Source of the DNA: a virus
Strand: one strand, 5' to 3'
IMG/VR virus record: IMGVR_UViG_3300037882_001264
Location: 1-64,000 of that record
Length of the DNA: 64,000 nt
This document shows positions 2,786 through 62,048 of this stretch, one piece after another. Both the position numbers and the translations under genes were made by a program. Positions within the stretch are counted from its first letter, which is position 1. The number at the start of each line of letters is the position of its first letter. Under the pieces are notes generated by a model. It did not search any database. It was not told where the DNA came from and worked only from the letters and a program-made list of their open reading frames with translations.

Positions 2786-3133
2786 TTAGTCGAGGGTGAC
2801 GACGTGCCAGTCGAAAGCGCGACCCGTGCCGACAGTCTGCTTCAGAGAGAACAGACATCCGTAAGCAACCGGGATCGGTACGGTCTGCACTACGGGATCG
2901 GCGACTGCCCCAGAGAAGGTGGCCAAGTACACGAGGTGTGTGGTAGTGCCTGTGATGAGTGAGTCGGTGCTGATGGTCTTGTTGTAGACGCGGATCTCAA
3001 CAACATCCGTCCCAGTAAGGTTCCTGAGATTGACAGTGAGCACACGAGTCTTGGCCGTCGTCGGCGTAAGAAGCGTGTGTTCAGTGCCGATCGTGGCAGT
3101 CTGGGTGTTGACCGACTCGACTACGGGCGCCAT
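2786..3133 (-). CDS. Small virion structural protein
   Basis: ORF restarted at MAPVVESVNTQ after an AGAAGG RBS; Thr/Val beta-rich; tail block context. Confidence 0.65.
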   Translation of the reverse strand: MAPVVESVNTQTATIGTEHTLLTPTTAKTRVLTVNLRNLTGTDVVEIRVYNKTISTDSLITGTTTHLVYLATFSGAVADPVVQTVPIPVAYGCLFSLKQTVGTGRAFDWHVVTLD

Positions 3134-4006: not shown

Positions 4007-4378
4007 TTACGACGCCGTGAGAGAGATGGCACCCGCAGCGATGGTGATGGAAGCAGCCGTGACCGAGGAGCCGAGCGCAGCGCCGATGGCGAACGTGCCA
4101 CCCGCGTAGGTGGCCGAGTTCCACAGACCGACGTGCGTGACCGCAACCGTGCCAGCAGTGGAGAACGTGAGCGCACCGGAGTTCGTGATCGCCGAGGAGG
4201 CGGCAGCGTTCCACGCCACGGCCTGGCGAGCATACGAGCCGGTGTTCGCGTTCTCGTTGGTGCCGGTGGTGCCAGTCGTCGCGGAGTGCAGCGCACAGTG
4301 CGTCATCTGGTTCGTGGAGCCGGTGCCAGCCAGGCCGTTGAGGGCCGCGTTGGCAGCGGTGGTAGAGGCGAGTGCCAT
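4007..4378 (-). CDS. Minor tail/baseplate-associated structural protein
   Basis: YARQAVAW...TNSGALTF...VTHVGLWNSAT..G pattern is common in phage tail-region proteins. Confidence 0.7.
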   Translation of the reverse strand: MALASTTAANAALNGLAGTGSTNQMTHCALHSATTGTTGTNENANTGSYARQAVAWNAAASSAITNSGALTFSTAGTVAVTHVGLWNSATYAGGTFAIGAALGSSVTAASITIAAGAISLTAS

Positions 4379-16559: not shown

Positions 16560-16608
16560 GTCTCTGGCGGTGTGGTGTCAGTCTAGGCCATCGAGCCCAG
16601 GATGTCAA
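16560..16608 (-). promoter_or_regulatory. SigA-type early promoter plus CCGCCAGAGAC leader
   Basis: TTGACA-17-TAGACT, then CCGCCAGAGAC-cacg-AGGAG. Confidence 0.75.
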
Positions 16609-30906: not shown

Positions 30907-30979
30907 GTCTCTGGCGGCTGATGGGTAGAACAATACGCTTATGCTGAGCAGGTGTCAAGCACCTGAGCGAAGTTTCTTT
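30907..30979 (-). promoter_or_regulatory. SigA-type early promoter with conserved upstream element and CCGCCAGAGAC leader
   Basis: AAAGAAACTTCGCTCAGGTGC-TTGACA-17-TATTGT. Confidence 0.8.
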
Positions 30980-31233
30980 CAGACGCCAGCGATGTCCCTA
31001 GCCTCAACCGCCTGACATCGGAAGACGATAGAGATCAGGTCGAGGAGGGCCTCCTCGCGGGTACGGACGAATCGCGTGTGGCCAATGCCGAACTTCACCA
31101 TGTCACGGACTGCGGCCCACTGGTTAGACCTGCCCTCGATGAAGCCGATGCTTTCGCCATTCAGGAAGACCTCCTGCTTCGAGGTCTCCATCGTGCGGTT
31201 CTTGCTGACAGTCACAAGGCGGACGTTGCTCAC
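30979..31233 (-). CDS. Hypothetical protein
   Basis: AGGAG RBS before GTG. Confidence 0.6.
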   Translation of the reverse strand: MSNVRLVTVSKNRTMETSKQEVFLNGESIGFIEGRSNQWAAVRDMVKFGIGHTRFVRTREEALLDLISIVFRCQAVEARDIAGV

Positions 31234-31246
31234 GATGTCTCCTAGA

Positions 31247-31318
31247 GTCTCTGGCGGGTACGAGTAGAACAATACACGCCCGCCAGATGCGCGTCAAGTA
31301 CCTGAGCGAAGTTTCTTT
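31247..31318 (-). promoter_or_regulatory. SigA-type early promoter with conserved upstream element and CCCGCCAGAGAC leader
   Basis: AAAGAAACTTCGCTCAGGTAC-TTGACG-17-TATTGT. Confidence 0.8.
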
Positions 31319-51091: not shown

Positions 51092-52170
51092 TGGGTCTCC
51101 TCTGAGTCGAGCACATTCCGGGCTCGTTGGGCGATAGCGGATCCTTGCCGCCAATCGCGGGGCTGCAAACTGGTGAATACGCGCCTCGAACCTTGGTCCT
51201 GATCGAAGGCCTTGAGCGTTGTCGGTGATGTCGTCGCGTTCGACGCGCCACCCGTGGGGTCGACGGCAGAGCCTGCCCCCACGTTCTCAGCATAGCCACA
51301 GCGCACGCAGGAGTAGTGATCGCCCTGCCTACGGAGTGACCCGTGCGCCCCACATACAGGGCAGTTCGTCGACTGGGCCTGGTTACTTCCCCCAGGTCCA
51401 TGCGGGTCGAACGGAAGTCGGTTGCTGTTCGCCCCAGGGGTCCCGTAGCCGGGGATCTCCTGCTGACGCTGGTTGTCAGGCACGACCTGGAACTGGCGGG
51501 TCCGGTCTTCGAGGTGCGTGCCCTGGTCGGTCTCGATGTAGACGTGCCGACCACTCGACTCGTGGTTGCGGACCTTCTTGACCTTCAGCGTCTGGCCCGT
51601 GGGGGTCCGGATGCTGTCGCCCGGGTTGAGGCGGTCGGCGCGCGTCTCGAACTGAGTTGCCTCAGCGGACAGGCTCGACTGCTTCTCGTGAAGGTCATCG
51701 TTGACAGTGTCGCAGGTGGGGACCCAGTCGTCCTTGTCCTCAGGCTTGTCCATTCCGCAGGCCGGGCAGTAGTCCAGGCTAGGACGCCAGTCGTGCGTGT
51801 TCTGGTTGGGGCCCGTGCGGGCAGAGCGCTTCTGGTCGAAGACCTCGTCGGGATCGTAGGTCTTGCGAGCGGGGGAGGGCGCCGAGGCGTACTGGTCGAA
51901 CGGCGAGTCCTGGCTGTTCTCGTAGGCCTCTTGGCGGTCGCCGTCCACGCAGGTCGGGCACTTCGGCGAGCGGGTGTTCTTCGGGACAACCATCGGCGTG
52001 CCACAGCCGACACACGAACCGCGCTCGGCCTTCTTGGTCATGCTGCGGCGGACCTTCTTCTGGTCCGTCGAGGGGTTACGGCGAATGCTGGAGGTGCTAC
52101 CACGCATGGGCTCGCGCTGAGGCTTATCCTCAGCGGCCTGAGCCTTGCTCTTCGCACTCTCGTGCTGCAT
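51088..52170 (-). CDS. Modular zinc-ribbon head-region protein
   Basis: CVGC/CPTC, CPAC, CPVC/CVRC; follows a late-type promoter. Confidence 0.7.
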   Translation of the reverse strand: MQHESAKSKAQAAEDKPQREPMRGSTSSIRRNPSTDQKKVRRSMTKKAERGSCVGCGTPMVVPKNTRSPKCPTCVDGDRQEAYENSQDSPFDQYASAPSPARKTYDPDEVFDQKRSARTGPNQNTHDWRPSLDYCPACGMDKPEDKDDWVPTCDTVNDDLHEKQSSLSAEATQFETRADRLNPGDSIRTPTGQTLKVKKVRNHESSGRHVYIETDQGTHLEDRTRQFQVVPDNQRQQEIPGYGTPGANSNRLPFDPHGPGGSNQAQSTNCPVCGAHGSLRRQGDHYSCVRCGYAENVGAGSAVDPTGGASNATTSPTTLKAFDQDQGSRRVFTSLQPRDWRQGSAIAQRARNVLDSEETQ

Positions 52171-56306: not shown

Positions 56307-59300
56307 TGCGACCCTCACGTATGCGTAGGCGAGCGAGCCGAGGGCTGCTGCGAGGAGGATCTTCCTTGCCCTCACTGAGTACCTCATCAGACGCAAAGAT
56401 GTGGGACGGGTGGATGTCGCTGGGCCAGTAGTCCTCGCCCAGGTTGCCCCGGTAGGGGGTCTCAGCGTGCTCCATGTGCTGTGCGGCTGGGTTGTTGACG
56501 CTACCCCTCACGACGCGCACCGGTACATGGCTGACGCCCTCCTCGTGAGCAGCCTGGACTCGGTGGTTGCCTTCGCCGAGGTAGGCATGGTGGGTCTTCG
56601 GATCGAAGATTACCATGGCCGGATCCTTGAACCCCTCGCCGTTGCGGAGGGACTCGCGGTAGTGCTCTACGCCGGAGCGCTCAGTCTCGTTGCCGTGCAT
56701 CTTGCGCAGCGCGTCGGTGCTGACATAGCCGATGACAGATCGGTCCTCGCCCTGACCGCCCATGCCGCTGTCACGGTAGTGGTTCATGTTCGGGTGCAGC
56801 GTCGTGGGGTCGACCTTCGAGGCGATCTTCTGACCGTGCTGGTCGCGCTTGATGAACATCCCCTCCTCGTCGAAGTCTTCATCCTTGGGCTCGGCCAGGG
56901 TCTGCTTGACGTCGTCGAACTCGTTGTGACCGAAGCCCCGGTCGCCAGTCATGTACCCCTTCCAGCGATTGTAGTGCTGGGTGTGCTGCTCGGGTGTCAT
57001 GTCGCGGACGTCAGGACCGTCGTAGTGGTAGCCCTCGCCGAAGTGATGGCGCGGGGGCTGATCCCAGCCGTCCCGCTCGATCGGCTTTCCAGAGTCAAAC
57101 TCGCTGCCGTGGTGGCTCTCGATGCGGCCATGCTCACCGAATGCCTCGCGCTCGTGCGCGTCGAGGGGGATGACTCGATGCACCTTCACCTTGTCGAAGT
57201 GCTCGGCGGGTATGAACTTCTCTCCGCCCCATCGCTCGTCGGTAGCGACTCCCTTGGGGGAGTGGATCTCTGCCACGTATGGGCGAACGTAGCCCTGCGT
57301 TCCAGTCCAGTCGCTAGGGCGCTCAGCCGTGTAGAGGCCCTTGTGCTCGCGAGGACGGATGGACAATGCGTTGTCCTCCGGCTGGTGGTCCGGGTTCAGC
57401 GCGAAGTGGGGGTTATCAGTAAGGTGGTAGGTCACCTCGTGATCCTGAGACGACGTCTTCTGGTCGGGGAAGCGAGCATCGACCAACTGCTGCCACAGCC
57501 CCGCCTGGTCGAGGTACTTCTCGACGGCGTTGCGGTAGTCGAACACACCCTGGCCATGCGGGCCGAATGCCCCCGAGCGCGAGGAGTGGATGTGCTCCCA
57601 GATGCGCTTGGCACGGTTCGAGCGCGCTGGCTCCGGGAGGGCGAGCGCACCCTTGACCTGCTGCGCGACGCCCTCGAAGTAGTACCACTCCGTCGGCGAG
57701 AACTTGTGGCCCTTCGGCTCGCTGACGGGGCGCACGGCCCACTCGTCGTCGGAGAGGTTGTACGCGGCGTAGGGCTTGATCACGCGGATGTCGTAGGAGT
57801 TCGGGTTGACGTAGAAGGTGCTCGACCAGGGGCCGACACGCACCTTGCCACCCTCGGGGTCGCCAGCCCATTCCCACTCGGGGACTTCGCTGGAGGGCAC
57901 GTTGAGGTAGACACCTTCGAGGTTGCAGTGCTCACGCAGTTCAGCGTTGAGGTGAGCCGACACCATCTTGGGGCTCATGCCAGCGAACTGCGGATTGGCC
58001 TCGACCAGCCCCTTGTACTCGACGCCGATCAGTGTGTCGAGGTCATCGTTGAGCCGGTACTTCGGGTCGACTTCGCGATCGGCTGCATGAGCCTGGATGG
58101 CGTTCTTGTCAGCCCACCACTCGGAGATGCTGGAGCCAGCGATGTAGACCTTGCTCCAGGTGCGCCAGTTGGAGTAGCGACCGTCCCACCATGCAGCCAG
58201 TCGCCCCATGGCGTAGTCGCGGACCTCGGGGCGGATCCTGTCGCCGTCGAACAGGCGCGGGTCAAGGCTACCGTTCGTCGGGGCGAAGAGGCGGTCGGTC
58301 GGTTGCCAGGTGTCGAGGACGTGAGACTCGCGAAGAAGCGCCTGCTTTATCGTCTTCCATGGGGTGTGCTTGACCTCCTTGCGGAGCGCGGGCATGTCGG
58401 GTAGATCAGCGATGTCCCACCAGGCCACGACCTCAATGTCATCACCCTTGGGGTCATCGGGATTGCGGACGTGACGGTCTTCGTGGTCGGGATTGAGGTC
58501 GATGTCATCCTCGGTGGGGATCGTCAGGACAAACCCCTGGTAGATCCCGTTCGGGCTGACCCAGTTCGCCGTGACCTCAGCGTCGCTGGGGATCTTCAGC
58601 CCGGTCTCCTCGGAGAACTCACGGCGTGCAGCGGCGAGGGGGTCCTCACCCTCATCGATATGACCTCCGGGGAACTCCCAGGTGCCACGAGCCGGGTCCG
58701 ACTCGTCCTCGTTGGAGCGCTGGATTAGCAGGATGCGACCGGAGTCCTTGGCCTTGAGGCACAGCCCCGCAACCTCGATGCTCTTCGCCTCAGCAAAGTG
58801 CTGGAGGATCGACACCGGCTGGAAGTCCTTCTTGCGGAGCCGAGGCCTTGCCTTGGTAGCGTCCTCGTATGCGACTTCGTGCTGGTCCCAGTCGTGCGGC
58901 TCGTACACGTCGCTGCCGTCAGAAACACTCTTGACGAATCCCCTGCCATCGCGGGTGAGGTCGTCAGAGTGCATTGGCAGGGTGTCGACGTGACCGGCGT
59001 CGTGCAGTTGCTGGGCGTGCTCCAGCATCTTGCGCGCGACACCCTTGCCGTCGTACCCCCGGCCCACCTGCACCCAGGTGATCTCACCGGGCTTGTACTG
59101 GCGGCTGCCGTCCTTGCCGACCCACGAGAGGCTCCCGACAGGAGCACCGCGATCTGGCAGCCGGGCGTGGATAACGTGCTTCTCCCCACCGAGGGTGGGC
59201 TGCTTCTCGTAGTGGAGTTTCAGACCATCGAGCGAGTAGTCATCGCCGAATCCACCAAAGTGCTGGAGAACCCCGAGAGTGTAGTCATGCTTGGTCCCCT

Positions 59301-59790
59301 TGGGGTCGGCCACCTCATCGTGGAACGCCCCGGGGTCCTTTCCGGACTCTTCGCCGTCCTCCCAGTTGCTGTCATCCCACCCTCTGGTGTTCATCCAGGT
59401 CCGACCGTCCTCAGACAACTCAGGAGAGTGGATGGGAAACGAATCGGCCTGGCCACTGGTGTAACGCTCCTTGGCGTGTTCCATCATGGCGCTGGCAATG
59501 CCCTTGCGACGATGGTCCTCATGAACCCACACATTGGAGATCTCACCCGGGTAGTGCCCATCGGACTCCGAGTACCTCTCCGATTCGCGAGGAGCCCAGG
59601 TCATGCTGCCCACGAGCCCACCCGAGGATGGGCTGTGAGCCTCAACAGCATGGTGGGGAGTTATGTAGTGGGGCGTTCCGTCACCCTTCCTGCGCCCCGG
59701 GAAGAAGCGGAACTTCAAGTCTGAGGGCAGATCTCCGCTGGAGCCGCCAAAGTGCTGAAGCAGGGAGGCACCATCGGGCTGCTGGCTCAC
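56299..59790 (-). CDS. Polyvalent protein: GNAT, GNAT, Nudix hydrolase, nucleotidyltransferase, ART-like and ParB-like domains
   Basis: VWVHEDHRRKGIASAM; VQVGRGYDGKGVARKM; GTWEFPGGHIDEGEDPLAAARREFSEETG; IAGSSIS...DDLDTLI; YHLT...GLYT...GGEKF; LGEGNHRVQAA. GGAGG RBS before GTG 59790. Confidence 0.85.
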   Translation of the reverse strand: MSQQPDGASLLQHFGGSSGDLPSDLKFRFFPGRRKGDGTPHYITPHHAVEAHSPSSGGLVGSMTWAPRESERYSESDGHYPGEISNVWVHEDHRRKGIASAMMEHAKERYTSGQADSFPIHSPELSEDGRTWMNTRGWDDSNWEDGEESGKDPGAFHDEVADPKGTKHDYTLGVLQHFGGFGDDYSLDGLKLHYEKQPTLGGEKHVIHARLPDRGAPVGSLSWVGKDGSRQYKPGEITWVQVGRGYDGKGVARKMLEHAQQLHDAGHVDTLPMHSDDLTRDGRGFVKSVSDGSDVYEPHDWDQHEVAYEDATKARPRLRKKDFQPVSILQHFAEAKSIEVAGLCLKAKDSGRILLIQRSNEDESDPARGTWEFPGGHIDEGEDPLAAARREFSEETGLKIPSDAEVTANWVSPNGIYQGFVLTIPTEDDIDLNPDHEDRHVRNPDDPKGDDIEVVAWWDIADLPDMPALRKEVKHTPWKTIKQALLRESHVLDTWQPTDRLFAPTNGSLDPRLFDGDRIRPEVRDYAMGRLAAWWDGRYSNWRTWSKVYIAGSSISEWWADKNAIQAHAADREVDPKYRLNDDLDTLIGVEYKGLVEANPQFAGMSPKMVSAHLNAELREHCNLEGVYLNVPSSEVPEWEWAGDPEGGKVRVGPWSSTFYVNPNSYDIRVIKPYAAYNLSDDEWAVRPVSEPKGHKFSPTEWYYFEGVAQQVKGALALPEPARSNRAKRIWEHIHSSRSGAFGPHGQGVFDYRNAVEKYLDQAGLWQQLVDARFPDQKTSSQDHEVTYHLTDNPHFALNPDHQPEDNALSIRPREHKGLYTAERPSDWTGTQGYVRPYVAEIHSPKGVATDERWGGEKFIPAEHFDKVKVHRVIPLDAHEREAFGEHGRIESHHGSEFDSGKPIERDGWDQPPRHHFGEGYHYDGPDVRDMTPEQHTQHYNRWKGYMTGDRGFGHNEFDDVKQTLAEPKDEDFDEEGMFIKRDQHGQKIASKVDPTTLHPNMNHYRDSGMGGQGEDRSVIGYVSTDALRKMHGNETERSGVEHYRESLRNGEGFKDPAMVIFDPKTHHAYLGEGNHRVQAAHEEGVSHVPVRVVRGSVNNPAAQHMEHAETPYRGNLGEDYWPSDIHPSHIFASDEVLSEGKEDPPRSSPRLARLRIREGRNV

Positions 59791-59800
59791 GGTCACCTCC

Positions 59801-59836
59801 ACACCCTTTCGGGGCCCCCACGCTGAGAGCGACAGC
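59801..59836 (-). promoter_or_regulatory. Phage-specific (late-type) promoter
   Basis: GCTGT-21 nt-GAAAGGGTGT. Confidence 0.55.
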
Positions 59837-59843
59837 AATGACT

Positions 59844-59884
59844 GAGGGGCCCCTCCCGGAACTCAGTCCAGGTCGGGGCCCCTC
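59844..59884 (-). terminator. GC-rich hairpin closing the intergenic RNA
   Basis: GAGGGGCCCC...GGGGCCCCTC 10-bp arms with inner pairing; no strong U tract. Confidence 0.5.
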
Positions 59885-59963
59885 TGCGTGCCGATCCTGC
59901 CACAGCAACCCGCCAGAGACGCTGGGCGGACCTTGCACGCTTGGAGGGGGTTACCCTCCGTCG
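59844..59963 (-). ncRNA. Candidate structured small RNA complementary to early-gene leaders
   Basis: Upstream TTGCAC-18-(TG)CATACT promoter; hairpin GGAGGG/CCCUCC; GCGUGC/GCACGC-closed junction; terminal hairpin; contains GUCUCUGGCGGG. Confidence 0.5.
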
Positions 59964-59968
59964 GCCAT

Positions 59969-59998
59969 AGTATGGCACAACCGACCCAAGTGGTGCAA
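59969..59998 (-). promoter_or_regulatory. Putative SigA-type promoter for the intergenic RNA
   Basis: TTGCAC(59998-59993)-18-CATACT(59974-59969), extended TG; overlapped by a CCGACCC/GGGTCGG inverted repeat. Confidence 0.45.
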
Positions 59999-60008
59999 CC
60001 CGGGTCGG

Positions 60009-62048
60009 CTAGAAGCGGTGCCTCTTAGCGCCCCTGCGCTGCGGGGCCCAGTCGGGCCGATCGGGGTCTCCTCGACGAGCGCCGTTCCCGAAGTTCGAGA
60101 GCGCATCGCCCGGGTCTTCGCGCATGCCCGGGAAGGGGTCCGCTCCGCCCTGGAGCGCGCCACGCGGGCGGAAGTTCGACAGGTCCGCGTGCATGAAGTT
60201 GTTGACCTGCTCGCCGATGAGGACGTGAATGACTTCCATCATGCAGTCGGCGATGTCCTTGGACTGCACCGGCCCAGCGGAGGGGTGGTCGACCCGGCCG
60301 TTCTTCATCTGGAGGAACCGCAGTTCGAGGTCGGCGCGCTCGTTGTATGGGGCGTGCACGAGCCCGAGGTTGATCGCGGCCTTGGCGCTCTCCTTGACGG
60401 TCCAGTCGTACTGGCGGGTCGTGGTCTTCTCGAAGACGGTGACACGCTTGGGCATCGAGGTGTTGCGGATGCGCTTCTGCAACTTCTGCACCGACGCCGG
60501 GGAGTTGTACTGGTCGTAGGTGAACTCCTCTGGGTAGAACTTCGTGATGACGTTCTCCCAGATCCAGTCGTCGACCTGCTCGTAGTCGATGATGCCGTCC
60601 GGGTAGTCGGCGGGATCGAAGTGCCGGACCAGGTCGAAGACGCAGTGCAGTCGCCCTGCCTCATCAGTCTCAGTGTGGGCAACGGCGAGGCCGTACTTGT
60701 CGTTCACCTTCGAGGGGTCAGCGTGCCCCTTGTAGGCGTACATGAGGAGCCCGCCGGTCTGGGTCGTGATGGCAGGAGGACCGTACTGCTGCGGGCGCTC
60801 CGTCCACGGTGCGAAGATGCCCGCGACCTTCTCGCTGTTGAGATAGGCATCGATCGCTGTAGCAAAGCGCGACTCGCGCTCGACGGCGAAGGTCTCGGGG
60901 TTGGCTCGCTTGAGCCTCTCCATCGACTCGTCGTAGGTCTGGATCGCGCCCTTGAGTGGCTCGAAGGTCGGGGGCATGCTCTCGCGGTACTCGCCCAGGT
61001 CGCCGTCGAACTCCGGCGGGAAGAGGGGGATCTGGTCAGCCTTCTCCCAGTCCTTGTAGATGTCCCATGAGGCCAACTGGAACATGGCGATCTCGGGGTA
61101 CAGCGCAGTGCCGTGCTCGTTCAGTTCGAGGGAGTGCTGGTAGTTCTCGTAGAACTGGCCCATCATCTGCCAGGGGCTCGACGGCTCGACGATGAAGGCG
61201 TCCTTGCCGAACTGGTCGAGGGCCGGAGTGGCGGCCTGGTAGACCTCTTCAGCAGAGCGGTTGGCGCCAGAGGCCACAACGTGAGCCATCTCGTCGTAGG
61301 CCTGCATGAACGACGTCGGACCACGACCGGCCATCAGGGTCGACTCCTTCGGCACGATGCCGAAGGATGCCATGTCCTGCTCAGCGTTGATGCCCTTGCG
61401 TTCCATCTCCTTCATTCGGACCCAGTCCGAGGGGGCGTAGATCGTCAGGCTCTCGCCGAGCAAGCGCGAGATGTAGGGAGCGAAGCACGTCGATCCGGAG
61501 ATGACGTTGACGAGGTCCTGCCACACCTGAGCCTTGGCCTGCTCGCGCTTACCGGCGAACACCATGGCCATCAACTTCTTGTCGCGGTCGACACCGTAGT
61601 AGGCCTGCGGGCCTCCGGGGCGCGACATGTAGTTCCAGAGCACGTAGGACATCATGAGAGCGGTCATGTGCCCCTTACCGGCACGTCGACCCATGACCAG
61701 CAGCACCTCGCGGAACCACGGGTAGCCCCGCGCCTTGAGGTAGCGCATGCGTTCGAGGATGTCTCCTGCGACGCCGTTATAGTTGGTCTGGCGGAACGAC
61801 TCCTGCCACTCGGCCACGACCGCGTAGTCGTAGTCGGTGAAGAGGTCTTCCCGGAGGAAGACGATCTTCATCAGCGTGGCCTGGCGCGGGTAGAGGCTAG
61901 GTCGGTTCAGATACTCCGGACTGACGATCCATGTGATCGGGTCGGGCACCTCGATGATGGAGCCGGATACGATCCGGTGCATGTCCTGGGGCGCGATCCC
62001 CTTGAGACCATCAGGAAGGATCAGGCCGCCGCGACTGGCGAATGCCAT
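60009..62048 (-). CDS. terL: Terminase large subunit
   Basis: Walker A MGRRAGKG, Walker B YDEMAH, RNase-H-like HADPSKVND and KDIADC. Confidence 0.9.
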   Translation of the reverse strand: MAFASRGGLILPDGLKGIAPQDMHRIVSGSIIEVPDPITWIVSPEYLNRPSLYPRQATLMKIVFLREDLFTDYDYAVVAEWQESFRQTNYNGVAGDILERMRYLKARGYPWFREVLLVMGRRAGKGHMTALMMSYVLWNYMSRPGGPQAYYGVDRDKKLMAMVFAGKREQAKAQVWQDLVNVISGSTCFAPYISRLLGESLTIYAPSDWVRMKEMERKGINAEQDMASFGIVPKESTLMAGRGPTSFMQAYDEMAHVVASGANRSAEEVYQAATPALDQFGKDAFIVEPSSPWQMMGQFYENYQHSLELNEHGTALYPEIAMFQLASWDIYKDWEKADQIPLFPPEFDGDLGEYRESMPPTFEPLKGAIQTYDESMERLKRANPETFAVERESRFATAIDAYLNSEKVAGIFAPWTERPQQYGPPAITTQTGGLLMYAYKGHADPSKVNDKYGLAVAHTETDEAGRLHCVFDLVRHFDPADYPDGIIDYEQVDDWIWENVITKFYPEEFTYDQYNSPASVQKLQKRIRNTSMPKRVTVFEKTTTRQYDWTVKESAKAAINLGLVHAPYNERADLELRFLQMKNGRVDHPSAGPVQSKDIADCMMEVIHVLIGEQVNNFMHADLSNFRPRGALQGGADPFPGMREDPGDALSNFGNGARRGDPDRPDWAPQRRGAKRHRF

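Follow-up and report, generated by a model that had tools for sequence, protein, structure and literature searches.

What is the role of the non-coding gap that follows the large terminase gene, terL, in a phage genome of at least 100 kb, and why does this gap hold, in inverted orientation, a word that recurs beside the ribosome-binding sites of genes dispersed over the same genome? The locus belongs to the IMG/VR record IMGVR_UViG_3300037882_001264, a 102.8-kb metagenome contig of 64% GC that is ~70% complete by estimate and has its genes on the minus strand; the window analyzed here is its first 64 kb (positions 1 to 64,000), and its phage is referred to below as the source phage (G000). An initial annotation of the window had proposed that the gap codes for a trans-acting RNA directed against a dispersed set of leaders through the antisense (the anti-tag) of a shared word (the tag), and had named conservation in relatives and co-variation of seed and leader motif as checks of this proposal. 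New in the present analysis are a conserved single-copy hairpin that carries the anti-tag, the enrichment of the leader word in four genomes, and the co-variation of the two between lineages.

A predicted structured RNA in the gap after terL

The gap between terL and the next gene is 218 nt long (59791-60008). Considered on the minus strand, it contains the following parts, several of them taken from the minimum free energy (MFE) fold:

59969-59998, minus strand: weak promoter-like site, made up of TTGCAC (59998-59993), an 18-nt spacer and TGC-CATACT (59977-59969, an extended -10)
59844-59962, minus strand: predicted structured RNA of ~120 nt, comprising a 5' hairpin, a closing helix, an anti-leader hairpin and a terminal GC hairpin (MFE fold)
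59943-59959, minus strand: 5' hairpin GGAGGG-UAACC-CCCUCC, its 3' arm being a CCUCC that resembles an anti-Shine-Dalgarno (anti-SD) sequence (MFE fold)
59940-59935 with 59891-59886, minus strand: junction helix GCGUGC/GCACGC (MFE fold)
59893-59932, minus strand: anti-leader hairpin, the central arm, with a covarying stem and UGGC at 59915-59912
59909-59920, minus strand: GUCUCUGGCGGG, an exact antisense match to the leader tag (C)CCGCCAGAGAC; the plus strand reads cccgccagagac
59844-59884, minus strand: terminal GC-rich hairpin with a 10-bp outer stem (59884-59875 with 59853-59844; MFE fold)

Folding of the minus strand from 59962 to 59840 (123 nt) gives an MFE of -81 kcal/mol versus -55 in shuffled sequences (z = -7.1), and none of 200 shuffles folds as well. 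All four structures that the initial annotation had described for its ~120-nt fold, including the GCGUGC/GCACGC junction, are recovered in this MFE fold, and the antisense lies at 59909-59920, where it had been placed. The promoter-like TTGCAC-18-TGnCATACT that had been read after terL is likewise present, yet it matches 7 of 12 consensus positions plus the TG. One detail has to be revised: the annotation had CGUCU displayed in a hairpin loop, whereas the relatives show the conserved loop to be UGGC (59915-59912), with C-G and U-G as its closing pairs, and the CGUCU loop belongs to an alternative fold. The 5' arm of the stem, the UGGC loop and the Gs that follow it together constitute a Watson-Crick image of the tag, and the antisense stretch GUCUCUGGCGGG is the most conserved part of the element among relatives.

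The terminal hairpin is terminator-like in form but has no U run and fails the U-tail rule of the scanner that we used. It coexists with the anti-leader hairpin in both the MFE and the centroid folds of the window, so that no mutually exclusive terminator and antiterminator are seen. Searches against Rfam returned no match in the whole window, and just chance-level matches (E of at least 0.5) in the gap and in the relative L002.

Directly 3' of the anti-tag, at 59893-59903, lies a degenerate second copy of it, GUGGCAGGAUC, which looks like a local duplication; the 3' half of this copy agrees with the relatives' consensus hairpin, GGCAGGAU (L071 being an example). In L002 and L003 the loop could be drawn as pairing with a GCCUGUCAG further downstream to form a pseudoknot, a reading that was dropped as L063-L066 have no such partner. 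UGGC was also considered as the match of a tRNA 3' end (GCCA) or as T-box-like, a reading that has no specifier or alternative helices and is improbable.

Conservation of the element in relatives

Relatives were collected with protein-guided terL searches of viral and metagenome contigs, which recovered terL proteins of 45-79% identity, and the element was compared across 16 distinct sequences (terL 45-68% identical, 42-69% GC). In these 16 sequences a helix-closed structured region comes after terL; next are a hairpin and a strong GC hairpin, and the leader of the following gene comes last. The initial expectation of conservation was thus borne out, and 15 relatives share the same overall architecture, with the element in single copy per genome. 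The hairpin carries (A/G)UCUCUGGCGGG(A/U) or a close variant of it: UGGC is invariant and UCUCUGGCGGG nearly so, which is the kind of conserved seed that trans-acting small RNAs (sRNAs) have.

In an alignment of the 16 sequences anchored on the loop, the five flanking stem pairs are paired in 83.8% of cases versus 69.5% in shuffles, none of 500 of which reaches the observed value. Four of these five pairs have changed on both sides, and registers slid along the alignment score lower. The innermost pair is U-G in 12 of the 16; as such pairs have no equivalent on the opposite strand, the fold exists only on the strand of terL. The strong terminal hairpin stands at the same position in every relative, although its sequence differs, and in L002 it has a GUUUU tail. 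A CCUCC-type element is found 0-24 nt 5' of the conserved hairpin in relatives, and in G004 it is contiguous with the anti-tag. Several relatives, though not all, have TTGnnn, ~15 nt, TGG and CAnnnT at the position of the promoter-like site, and more distant relatives (terL identity of 51% or less) have a different gap. Found at one constant position behind terL in phages spanning 42-69% GC, the element defines an RNA family not described before.

A tag in dispersed leaders of the source phage

Exact matches to the 11-mer CCGCCAGAGAC number three on the minus strand (16560, 30907 and 31247) and one, inverted, on the plus strand (59910); these four copies in the window compare with 0.15 expected, and none of 100 shuffles reaches four. 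With near and partial copies counted in, the genome has nine tagged leaders, one of them beyond the window. The initial annotation had seen the motif 5' of the SD in at least eight leaders; that count holds, and on checking two of its coordinates become 22275 and 55120. In each tagged leader the tag stands between a TTGACA-17/18-TAnnnT promoter and AGGAG with its start codon, 0-15 nt 5' of the SD. The copies, with the open reading frames (ORFs) that they precede, are:

16560-16570, minus strand: exact tag, after TTGACA-17-TAGACT and 4 nt before AGGAG; ORFan of 155 amino acids
21757-21767, minus strand: tag with one mismatch at its 5' end; ORFan of 117 amino acids
22275-22285, minus strand: tag with U as its last base, giving a G-U pair with the hairpin; ORFan of 65 amino acids
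30907-30917, minus strand: exact tag; ORFan of 192 amino acids
31247-31258, minus strand: exact 12-mer; ORFan of 84 amino acids
33565-33572, minus strand: partial tag CCCGCCAG; ORF of 241 amino acids
34341-34352, minus strand: tag with an internal A-to-G change, giving a U-G pair with the hairpin; ORF of 59 amino acids
55120-55127, minus strand: tag CCGCCAGA running straight into GGAG; ORF of 286 amino acids, phrog_15500
89626, outside the window: partial copy

Two of the three one-mismatch leaders (22275 and 34341) thus keep their pairing with the hairpin through G-U. The tagged genes are mostly small ORFans that belong to no known families and lie behind host-type promoters. When the whole RNA was paired in silico with 55-nt leaders, their duplex energies (-33 to -53 kcal/mol) could not be told from background (mean -46.7) in so GC-rich a genome, and an ungapped complementarity scan that allowed G-U gave hundreds of matches on both strands. 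As both scans were uninformative, exact and near-exact words were used for the tag counts.

The inverted copy in a promoter spacer that the initial annotation had mentioned is present as TCTGGCGGG (transcribed strand) at 31280-31288, in the spacer of the promoter at 31297 and 21 nt before the tag of that promoter's own leader. The copies at 31280-31288 and 31247 could pair in a read-through RNA, hiding the leader; as DNA they make an inverted repeat around the -10. Several promoters of the window (30958-31310) also share GCTCAGGT(A/G)C before the -35, with a partial dyad.

Co-variation of tag and hairpin between lineages

An unbiased count of 7-mers was made in the 30 nt preceding sites with an SD and a start codon. 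The words CGCCAGA, GCCAGAG and CCAGAGA are the most enriched in the leader windows of the source phage, G006, G007 and G009 (e.g. 19 observed versus 1.2 expected), and the tag with at most one mismatch was found in leader versus control windows 10 versus 2, 23 versus 11, 14 versus 6 and 15 versus 1 times in the four genomes. The form (C)CGCCAGAGA is present in ~17, 13 and 12 leaders of G006, G007 and G009 respectively, the first two being complete genomes. Perfect complements of at least 9 nt to the genome's own hairpin occur in 6, 20, 15, 12 and 25 leaders of the source phage, G006, G007, G009 and G004, and the sense-strand control gives 0 in every genome. The hairpin thus has several conserved complementary sites at translation-initiation regions, in nine leaders of the source phage and in 12-25 of G006, G007, G009 and G004.

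Three co-varying states of hairpin and tag are seen across lineages, in keeping with the co-variation of seed and leader motif for which the initial annotation had looked. In the first (the source phage, G006, G007 and G009) the hairpin has UCUCUGGCGG and the tag is CCGCCAGAGA. Within this state the base 5' of UCUCUGG is G in the source phage, whose leaders end in C, and A in G009 and G006, whose leaders end in U; in G007 the RNA, read in antisense, gives the tag, a 6-nt spacer and AGGAGG, and this image aligns with the leaders of that genome through the SD. In the second state (G008) the hairpin has UCUUGGCGGG and the leaders CCGCCAAGA, the tag word that goes with UCUUGGCGG in the hairpin; eight copies lie on the coding strand versus one on the other, which is the hairpin's own site, and one leader is an exact 14-nt complement of the hairpin. 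In the third (G004) the hairpin has CCUCCUUGGCGGG, and CCGCCAAGG is found at 22 coding-strand sites, mostly as CCCGCCAAGGAG placed 5-9 nt before the start codon. Here the tag CCCGCCAAGGAG, matched by CUCCUUGGCGGG in the hairpin, is fused to the SD in ~20 genes, which would make the RNA of G004 a true anti-ribosome-binding-site.

A second class of leaders has a CCC-loop-GGGG(U)GA hairpin directly before the SD; one of these precedes the gene for the polyvalent protein that follows the gap (window 59804-59815). This hairpin-plus-SD class supplies the most enriched leader word in G003, G008 and G002, and is enriched in G007 too. A scan of the source genome for it gave three convincing cases, and with so few we claim no partition into early and late genes.

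Proposed function and alternatives

One 237-nt contig assembled from a soil metatranscriptome covers 59888-60124 with no differences, running from the interior of terL into the hairpin; DNA carry-over is possible, and the contig is compatible with co-transcription of the hairpin with terL. From its position, the element would be either an independent transcript of ~120 nt or the 3' untranslated tail of the terL message, and in either case the antisense sequence is on the transcribed strand of a late region.

The complementarity, the conservation of the element, the covariation of the hairpin, its co-variation with the tag between lineages and the link of the tag to start codons together suggest that the RNA probably silences the tagged genes by base pairing with their leaders, and both this effect and its timing are read here from sequence comparisons. 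This agrees with the trans-acting RNA envisaged by the initial annotation, conservation and co-variation both speaking in its favor. Under this proposal, as late transcripts accumulate, the expressed hairpin would pair with the tagged leaders. Pairing would nucleate at the loop and spread into the 5' arm of the stem, producing an 8-12-bp duplex adjacent to the SD, or, where a relative has a CCUCC nearby, one that covers the SD itself. Loading of the 30S subunit or ribosome would thereby be blocked, and the duplex might in addition be cut by an RNase. The outcome would be repression of the tagged set of small non-structural genes, while genes with hairpin-plus-SD leaders would be left untouched.

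Several points weigh against this proposal. A single RNA would need to titrate 9-25 mRNA species, and part of the antisense sits in the hairpin's own stem, which must open before pairing. The consensus scanner gave no promoter call in the gap and no call of a U-tailed terminator, the promoter-like sequences of relatives are not uniform, and the transcript evidence consists of assembled contigs of public runs, which give neither transcript ends nor abundance. Extra copies of the tag or its complement lie in promoter spacers (31280 and three cassettes of G009), for which a DNA-level reading is simpler, and a co-evolving DNA-binding protein would also yield a co-varying inverted DNA word. Moreover, G003 and G002, both complete genomes, keep the hairpin nearly unchanged, yet the tag is unenriched in them: complements of at least 9 nt stand in 3 and 0 of their leaders respectively, and the tag itself seemed absent from G003 and present in one or two copies in G002. 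Conservation of the loop in these two genomes implies that something besides the tagged leaders constrains it, and the loop may have a second, older partner, such as a protein, RNA polymerase or a host RNA.

It is quite improbable, in our estimate, that the tag is instead an asymmetric DNA site for a phage DNA-binding protein, akin to the stoperators of cluster A mycobacteriophages, with the copy in the gap being one such site in the other orientation. Many tags do begin 5-12 bp after the -10, a classical operator position; the promoter at 31297 has an inverted copy in its spacer; three promoter cassettes of G009 have a second direct copy over the -35; and stoperators too are found in one orientation in short intergenic spaces (PMC9283540, PMC3203893). 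However, the position of the tag is not set by transcription units but tracks the SD and start codon. This is plainest in G004, where the tag is fused to the SD and keeps its fixed distance of 5-9 nt from the starts, and it extends to copies that have no promoter, namely those that follow terminator hairpins or, with nothing between, a tRNA-Gly gene, and those in a 30-nt intercistronic spacer kept in G006 and G007. Without exception the tag is in sense orientation to the gene downstream, including in G009, which has genes on both strands, and the sole antisense intergenic copy per genome sits in the covarying hairpin that needs U-G pairs. In L062 a C-to-U change in the hairpin still allows G-U pairing with its unchanged tags (three were seen, and the tag is unenriched there). 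The promoters also have separate palindromes, of the CTCCAAGGATTCTTGGAG type, which along with the GCTCAGGT dyads are probably the true operator sites. The link to SD and start, the promoter-less copies, the covarying U-G hairpin and the separate palindromes hence favor RNA pairing, and an orientation-independent DNA operator fits the sequence data poorly.

A different possibility, which we regard as unlikely, is that the element acts in cis as a late leader or attenuator, comparable to lambda PR'-tR' or HK022 put: transcription from the promoter or by read-through of terL would pass the structured RNA and the terminator, which would gate the polyvalent-protein gene and those after it. The UGGC loop would then bind RNA polymerase, a phage antiterminator or an RNA-binding protein, and complementarity to leaders would be secondary, with early mRNAs, for example, titrating the loop. 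All relatives do keep one arrangement, which runs from the promoter-like site through the RNA, the strong hairpin, 30-70 nt and the hairpin with SD to the gene and leaves no room for another promoter ahead of that gene, the next gene in some relatives codes for a small Zn-ribbon protein, and such a role would accommodate the conservation of the loop in G003 and G002 despite their untagged leaders. Nevertheless, it leaves unexplained the exact complement in 9-25 leaders per genome, which changes along with the hairpin in G008 and G004. The independent folding of the anti-leader and terminal hairpins means that pairing would not switch the terminator, and no candidate binding protein was identified. 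Nor does the element have the alternative pairings of an attenuator or riboswitch with an intrinsic terminator, the loop-to-downstream pairing of L003 not being kept in L063-L066. More improbable still is that the hairpin imitates a piece of the host 16S rRNA, the tag being an rRNA-complementary signal and the RNA a decoy against ribosomes or an rRNA-binding factor. The segment GGAUCUCUGG of the consensus hairpin does equal the 3' strand of a helix in the actinobacterial 16S central domain, with the match reaching 12 nt in L063 and L090; AAGGCGGRTCTCTGGGC is found in at least 120 actinobacterial records, and inside the 16S genes of the two records checked; and the hairpins vary between A and G at the position where the 16S word does so too, R having been allowed there in the search for it. 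Against this, a 10-nt match to ~4.6 kb of rRNA has by our estimate a ~2% chance of arising at random, the 16S stretch is base-paired within the rRNA (with GGAGAUC as partner), the leaders fit the phage hairpin better than 16S (CGCC versus CCC), and the invariant UGGCGGG is absent from the 16S word.

Some further features of these promoters and leaders deserve mention. At many promoters the tag begins within a few nt of the expected transcription start. In G006 (51306-51394; L101:11306-11394) the tRNA-Gly gene is followed at once by tag, SD and start, and processing of the tRNA would leave an mRNA that begins at the tag. In the tag-bearing promoters of G006 and G007 (L099-L114, e.g. G006 59150-59190) the CTCCAAGGATTCTTGGAG-type palindrome fills the spacer between TTGAC and TAnnnT. 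The cassettes of G009 (3032-3065, 4262-4296 and 89408-89441; L115-L119) each repeat GCCAGAGAT in direct orientation at an interval of ~33 bp, with one copy covering the -35 and the other in the leader. The 16S-like arm and loop read GUCUCUGG in the source phage (window 59912-59922, minus strand; cf. L184:703-719).

Relation to known systems

Phage antisense RNAs are known as one-target immunity devices, the c4 antisense RNA of P1 and P7 and the CI RNA of satellite P4 being structured RNAs that pair with the phage's own transcripts and keep genes off. The element described here resembles them in having exposed segments that would pair with sites in its own genome's transcripts, at or near the ribosome-binding site as in c4, and in that it may be cut from a longer RNA. 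c4 and CI function in lysogenic immunity and have no more than two sites each, within one operon. The present element instead matches 9-25 dispersed leaders per genome, its place is downstream of terL in a large genome that is apparently lytic, and it is related to neither by sequence or Rfam family. Among bacterial sRNAs, 6C/B11 of Actinobacteria and RNAIII of Staphylococcus use C-rich loops to pair with the SD regions of several mRNAs and have no known chaperone. With these it shares a hairpin-loop seed facing purine-rich ribosome-binding regions of several mRNAs; it differs in having UGGCGGG and a lineage-specific arm as its seed rather than a run of C, and in being directed at the phage's own genes. 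In G004 a true anti-SD, CCUCCU, is present in addition.

A closer parallel in the arrangement of sites is offered by the start-associated sequence (SAS) of cluster K mycobacteriophages, an asymmetric 13-nt word, GGGATAGGAGCCC, that lies 3-9 nt before the starts of 13-19 non-structural genes in one orientation and includes or abuts the SD (PMC3203893); its role was still described as ill-defined or unknown in 2024 (PMC11373665). The cluster K papers that we compared propose no antisense RNA for SAS, and a 2025 survey of 188 genomes makes no mention of an antisense copy. The genome of Adephagia has 16 sense SAS sites on the same strand and one inverted site. The latter lies in a 432-nt non-coding gap between genes 92 and 93 (L256:48662-48716; about 58661-58715 of the record), where a long hairpin presents it as a 10-nt apical loop, CCUCCUAUCC, in a region of z = -6.5. 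In Pixie (K3), no inverted copy was found within one mismatch of a 10-mer. A start-linked word in one orientation, with a single inverted copy in a hairpin loop of a non-coding gap, is thus common to Adephagia and the phages studied here. The word and the phage group differ, the inverted SAS copy is close to the genome's right end instead of after terL, and the tag, standing 0-15 nt 5' of the SD, does not have the sequence or the spacing of SAS. The parallel is therefore one of analogy and not homology, and suggests that the tag/anti-tag principle is wider than the clade of the source phage.

Stoperators of cluster A, which are DNA sites bound by the immunity repressor, are likewise asymmetric words (13-14 bp) present in many copies in short intergenic spaces and in one orientation relative to transcription (PMC9283540, PMC6550527). 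The tag shares this one-sided distribution but differs in being tied to SD and start and in having its inverted copy displayed in a covarying RNA hairpin. In T4, early mRNAs of one class are inactivated at their ribosome-binding sites by the endoribonuclease RegB, which cuts GGAG, in the switch to later expression (PMC3014915); the likeness lies in the inactivation of such a class at these sites, with the difference that RegB is a protein, whereas here an RNA would mask the site or mark it for cleavage.

By extension of these analogies, it is quite possible, though at somewhat less than even odds, that large actinobacteriophage-like viruses have a general anti-start switch, in which a late hairpin RNA, bearing an anti-SD, a lineage-specific extension or both, silences every tagged mRNA, and that the same logic explains SAS. 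The function of SAS has been open since 2011, and its single inverted copy in a hairpin loop offers a concrete hypothesis for it. If the proposal is true, a single RNA addressing a whole class of the phage's own mRNAs would be a new way of timing the lytic program, an RNA counterpart of T4 RegB. Cluster K phages are culturable and engineerable, and some are therapeutic, which makes the principle testable there; tag/anti-tag pairs might also find use in Actinobacteria as orthogonal switches of translation.

Genomic and environmental context

The features that flank the element in the source phage are:

60009-62048, minus strand: terL, large terminase of 679 amino acids, with the stop codon TAG at 60011-60009 (tblastn)
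59790-59815, minus strand: leader of the next gene, with a CCCC-GAAA-GGG hairpin, GGAGG (59800-59796) and a GTG start at 59790

In tblastn comparisons the terL product is 33% identical to terminases annotated in Rhodococcus phage E3 and in mycobacteriophages of cluster C. Searches of the gap and its flanks against 50,697 phage records with megablast and blastn returned no match and no close relative there. A reading of the plus strand of the gap as the leader of an antisense gene was rejected, there being no ORF with a start at SD distance.

The gene after the gap codes for a polyvalent protein of 1163 amino acids with GNAT and NUDIX domains. In many relatives terL or the RNA is followed by a gene for a small Cys/His-rich protein of 50-100 amino acids (CxxCxH...H...C.A.GC), as at L062:3750-3935, L071:3695-3880, L089:3530-3705, L005:9045-9195 and in L073-L085. 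This small Zn-ribbon product was considered as a protein partner of the hairpin and set aside, the fragment of the source genome having no clear homologue of it. Contigs of public runs from freshwater, plant and soil libraries include sequence of the source phage or of near relatives; the parts that they leave uncovered carry no weight either way. Those of one freshwater run (X17) join across 58326-58825 and 59266-59759, ~495 nt each, and judging from these joins they derive from a near relative without two modules of the polyvalent protein.

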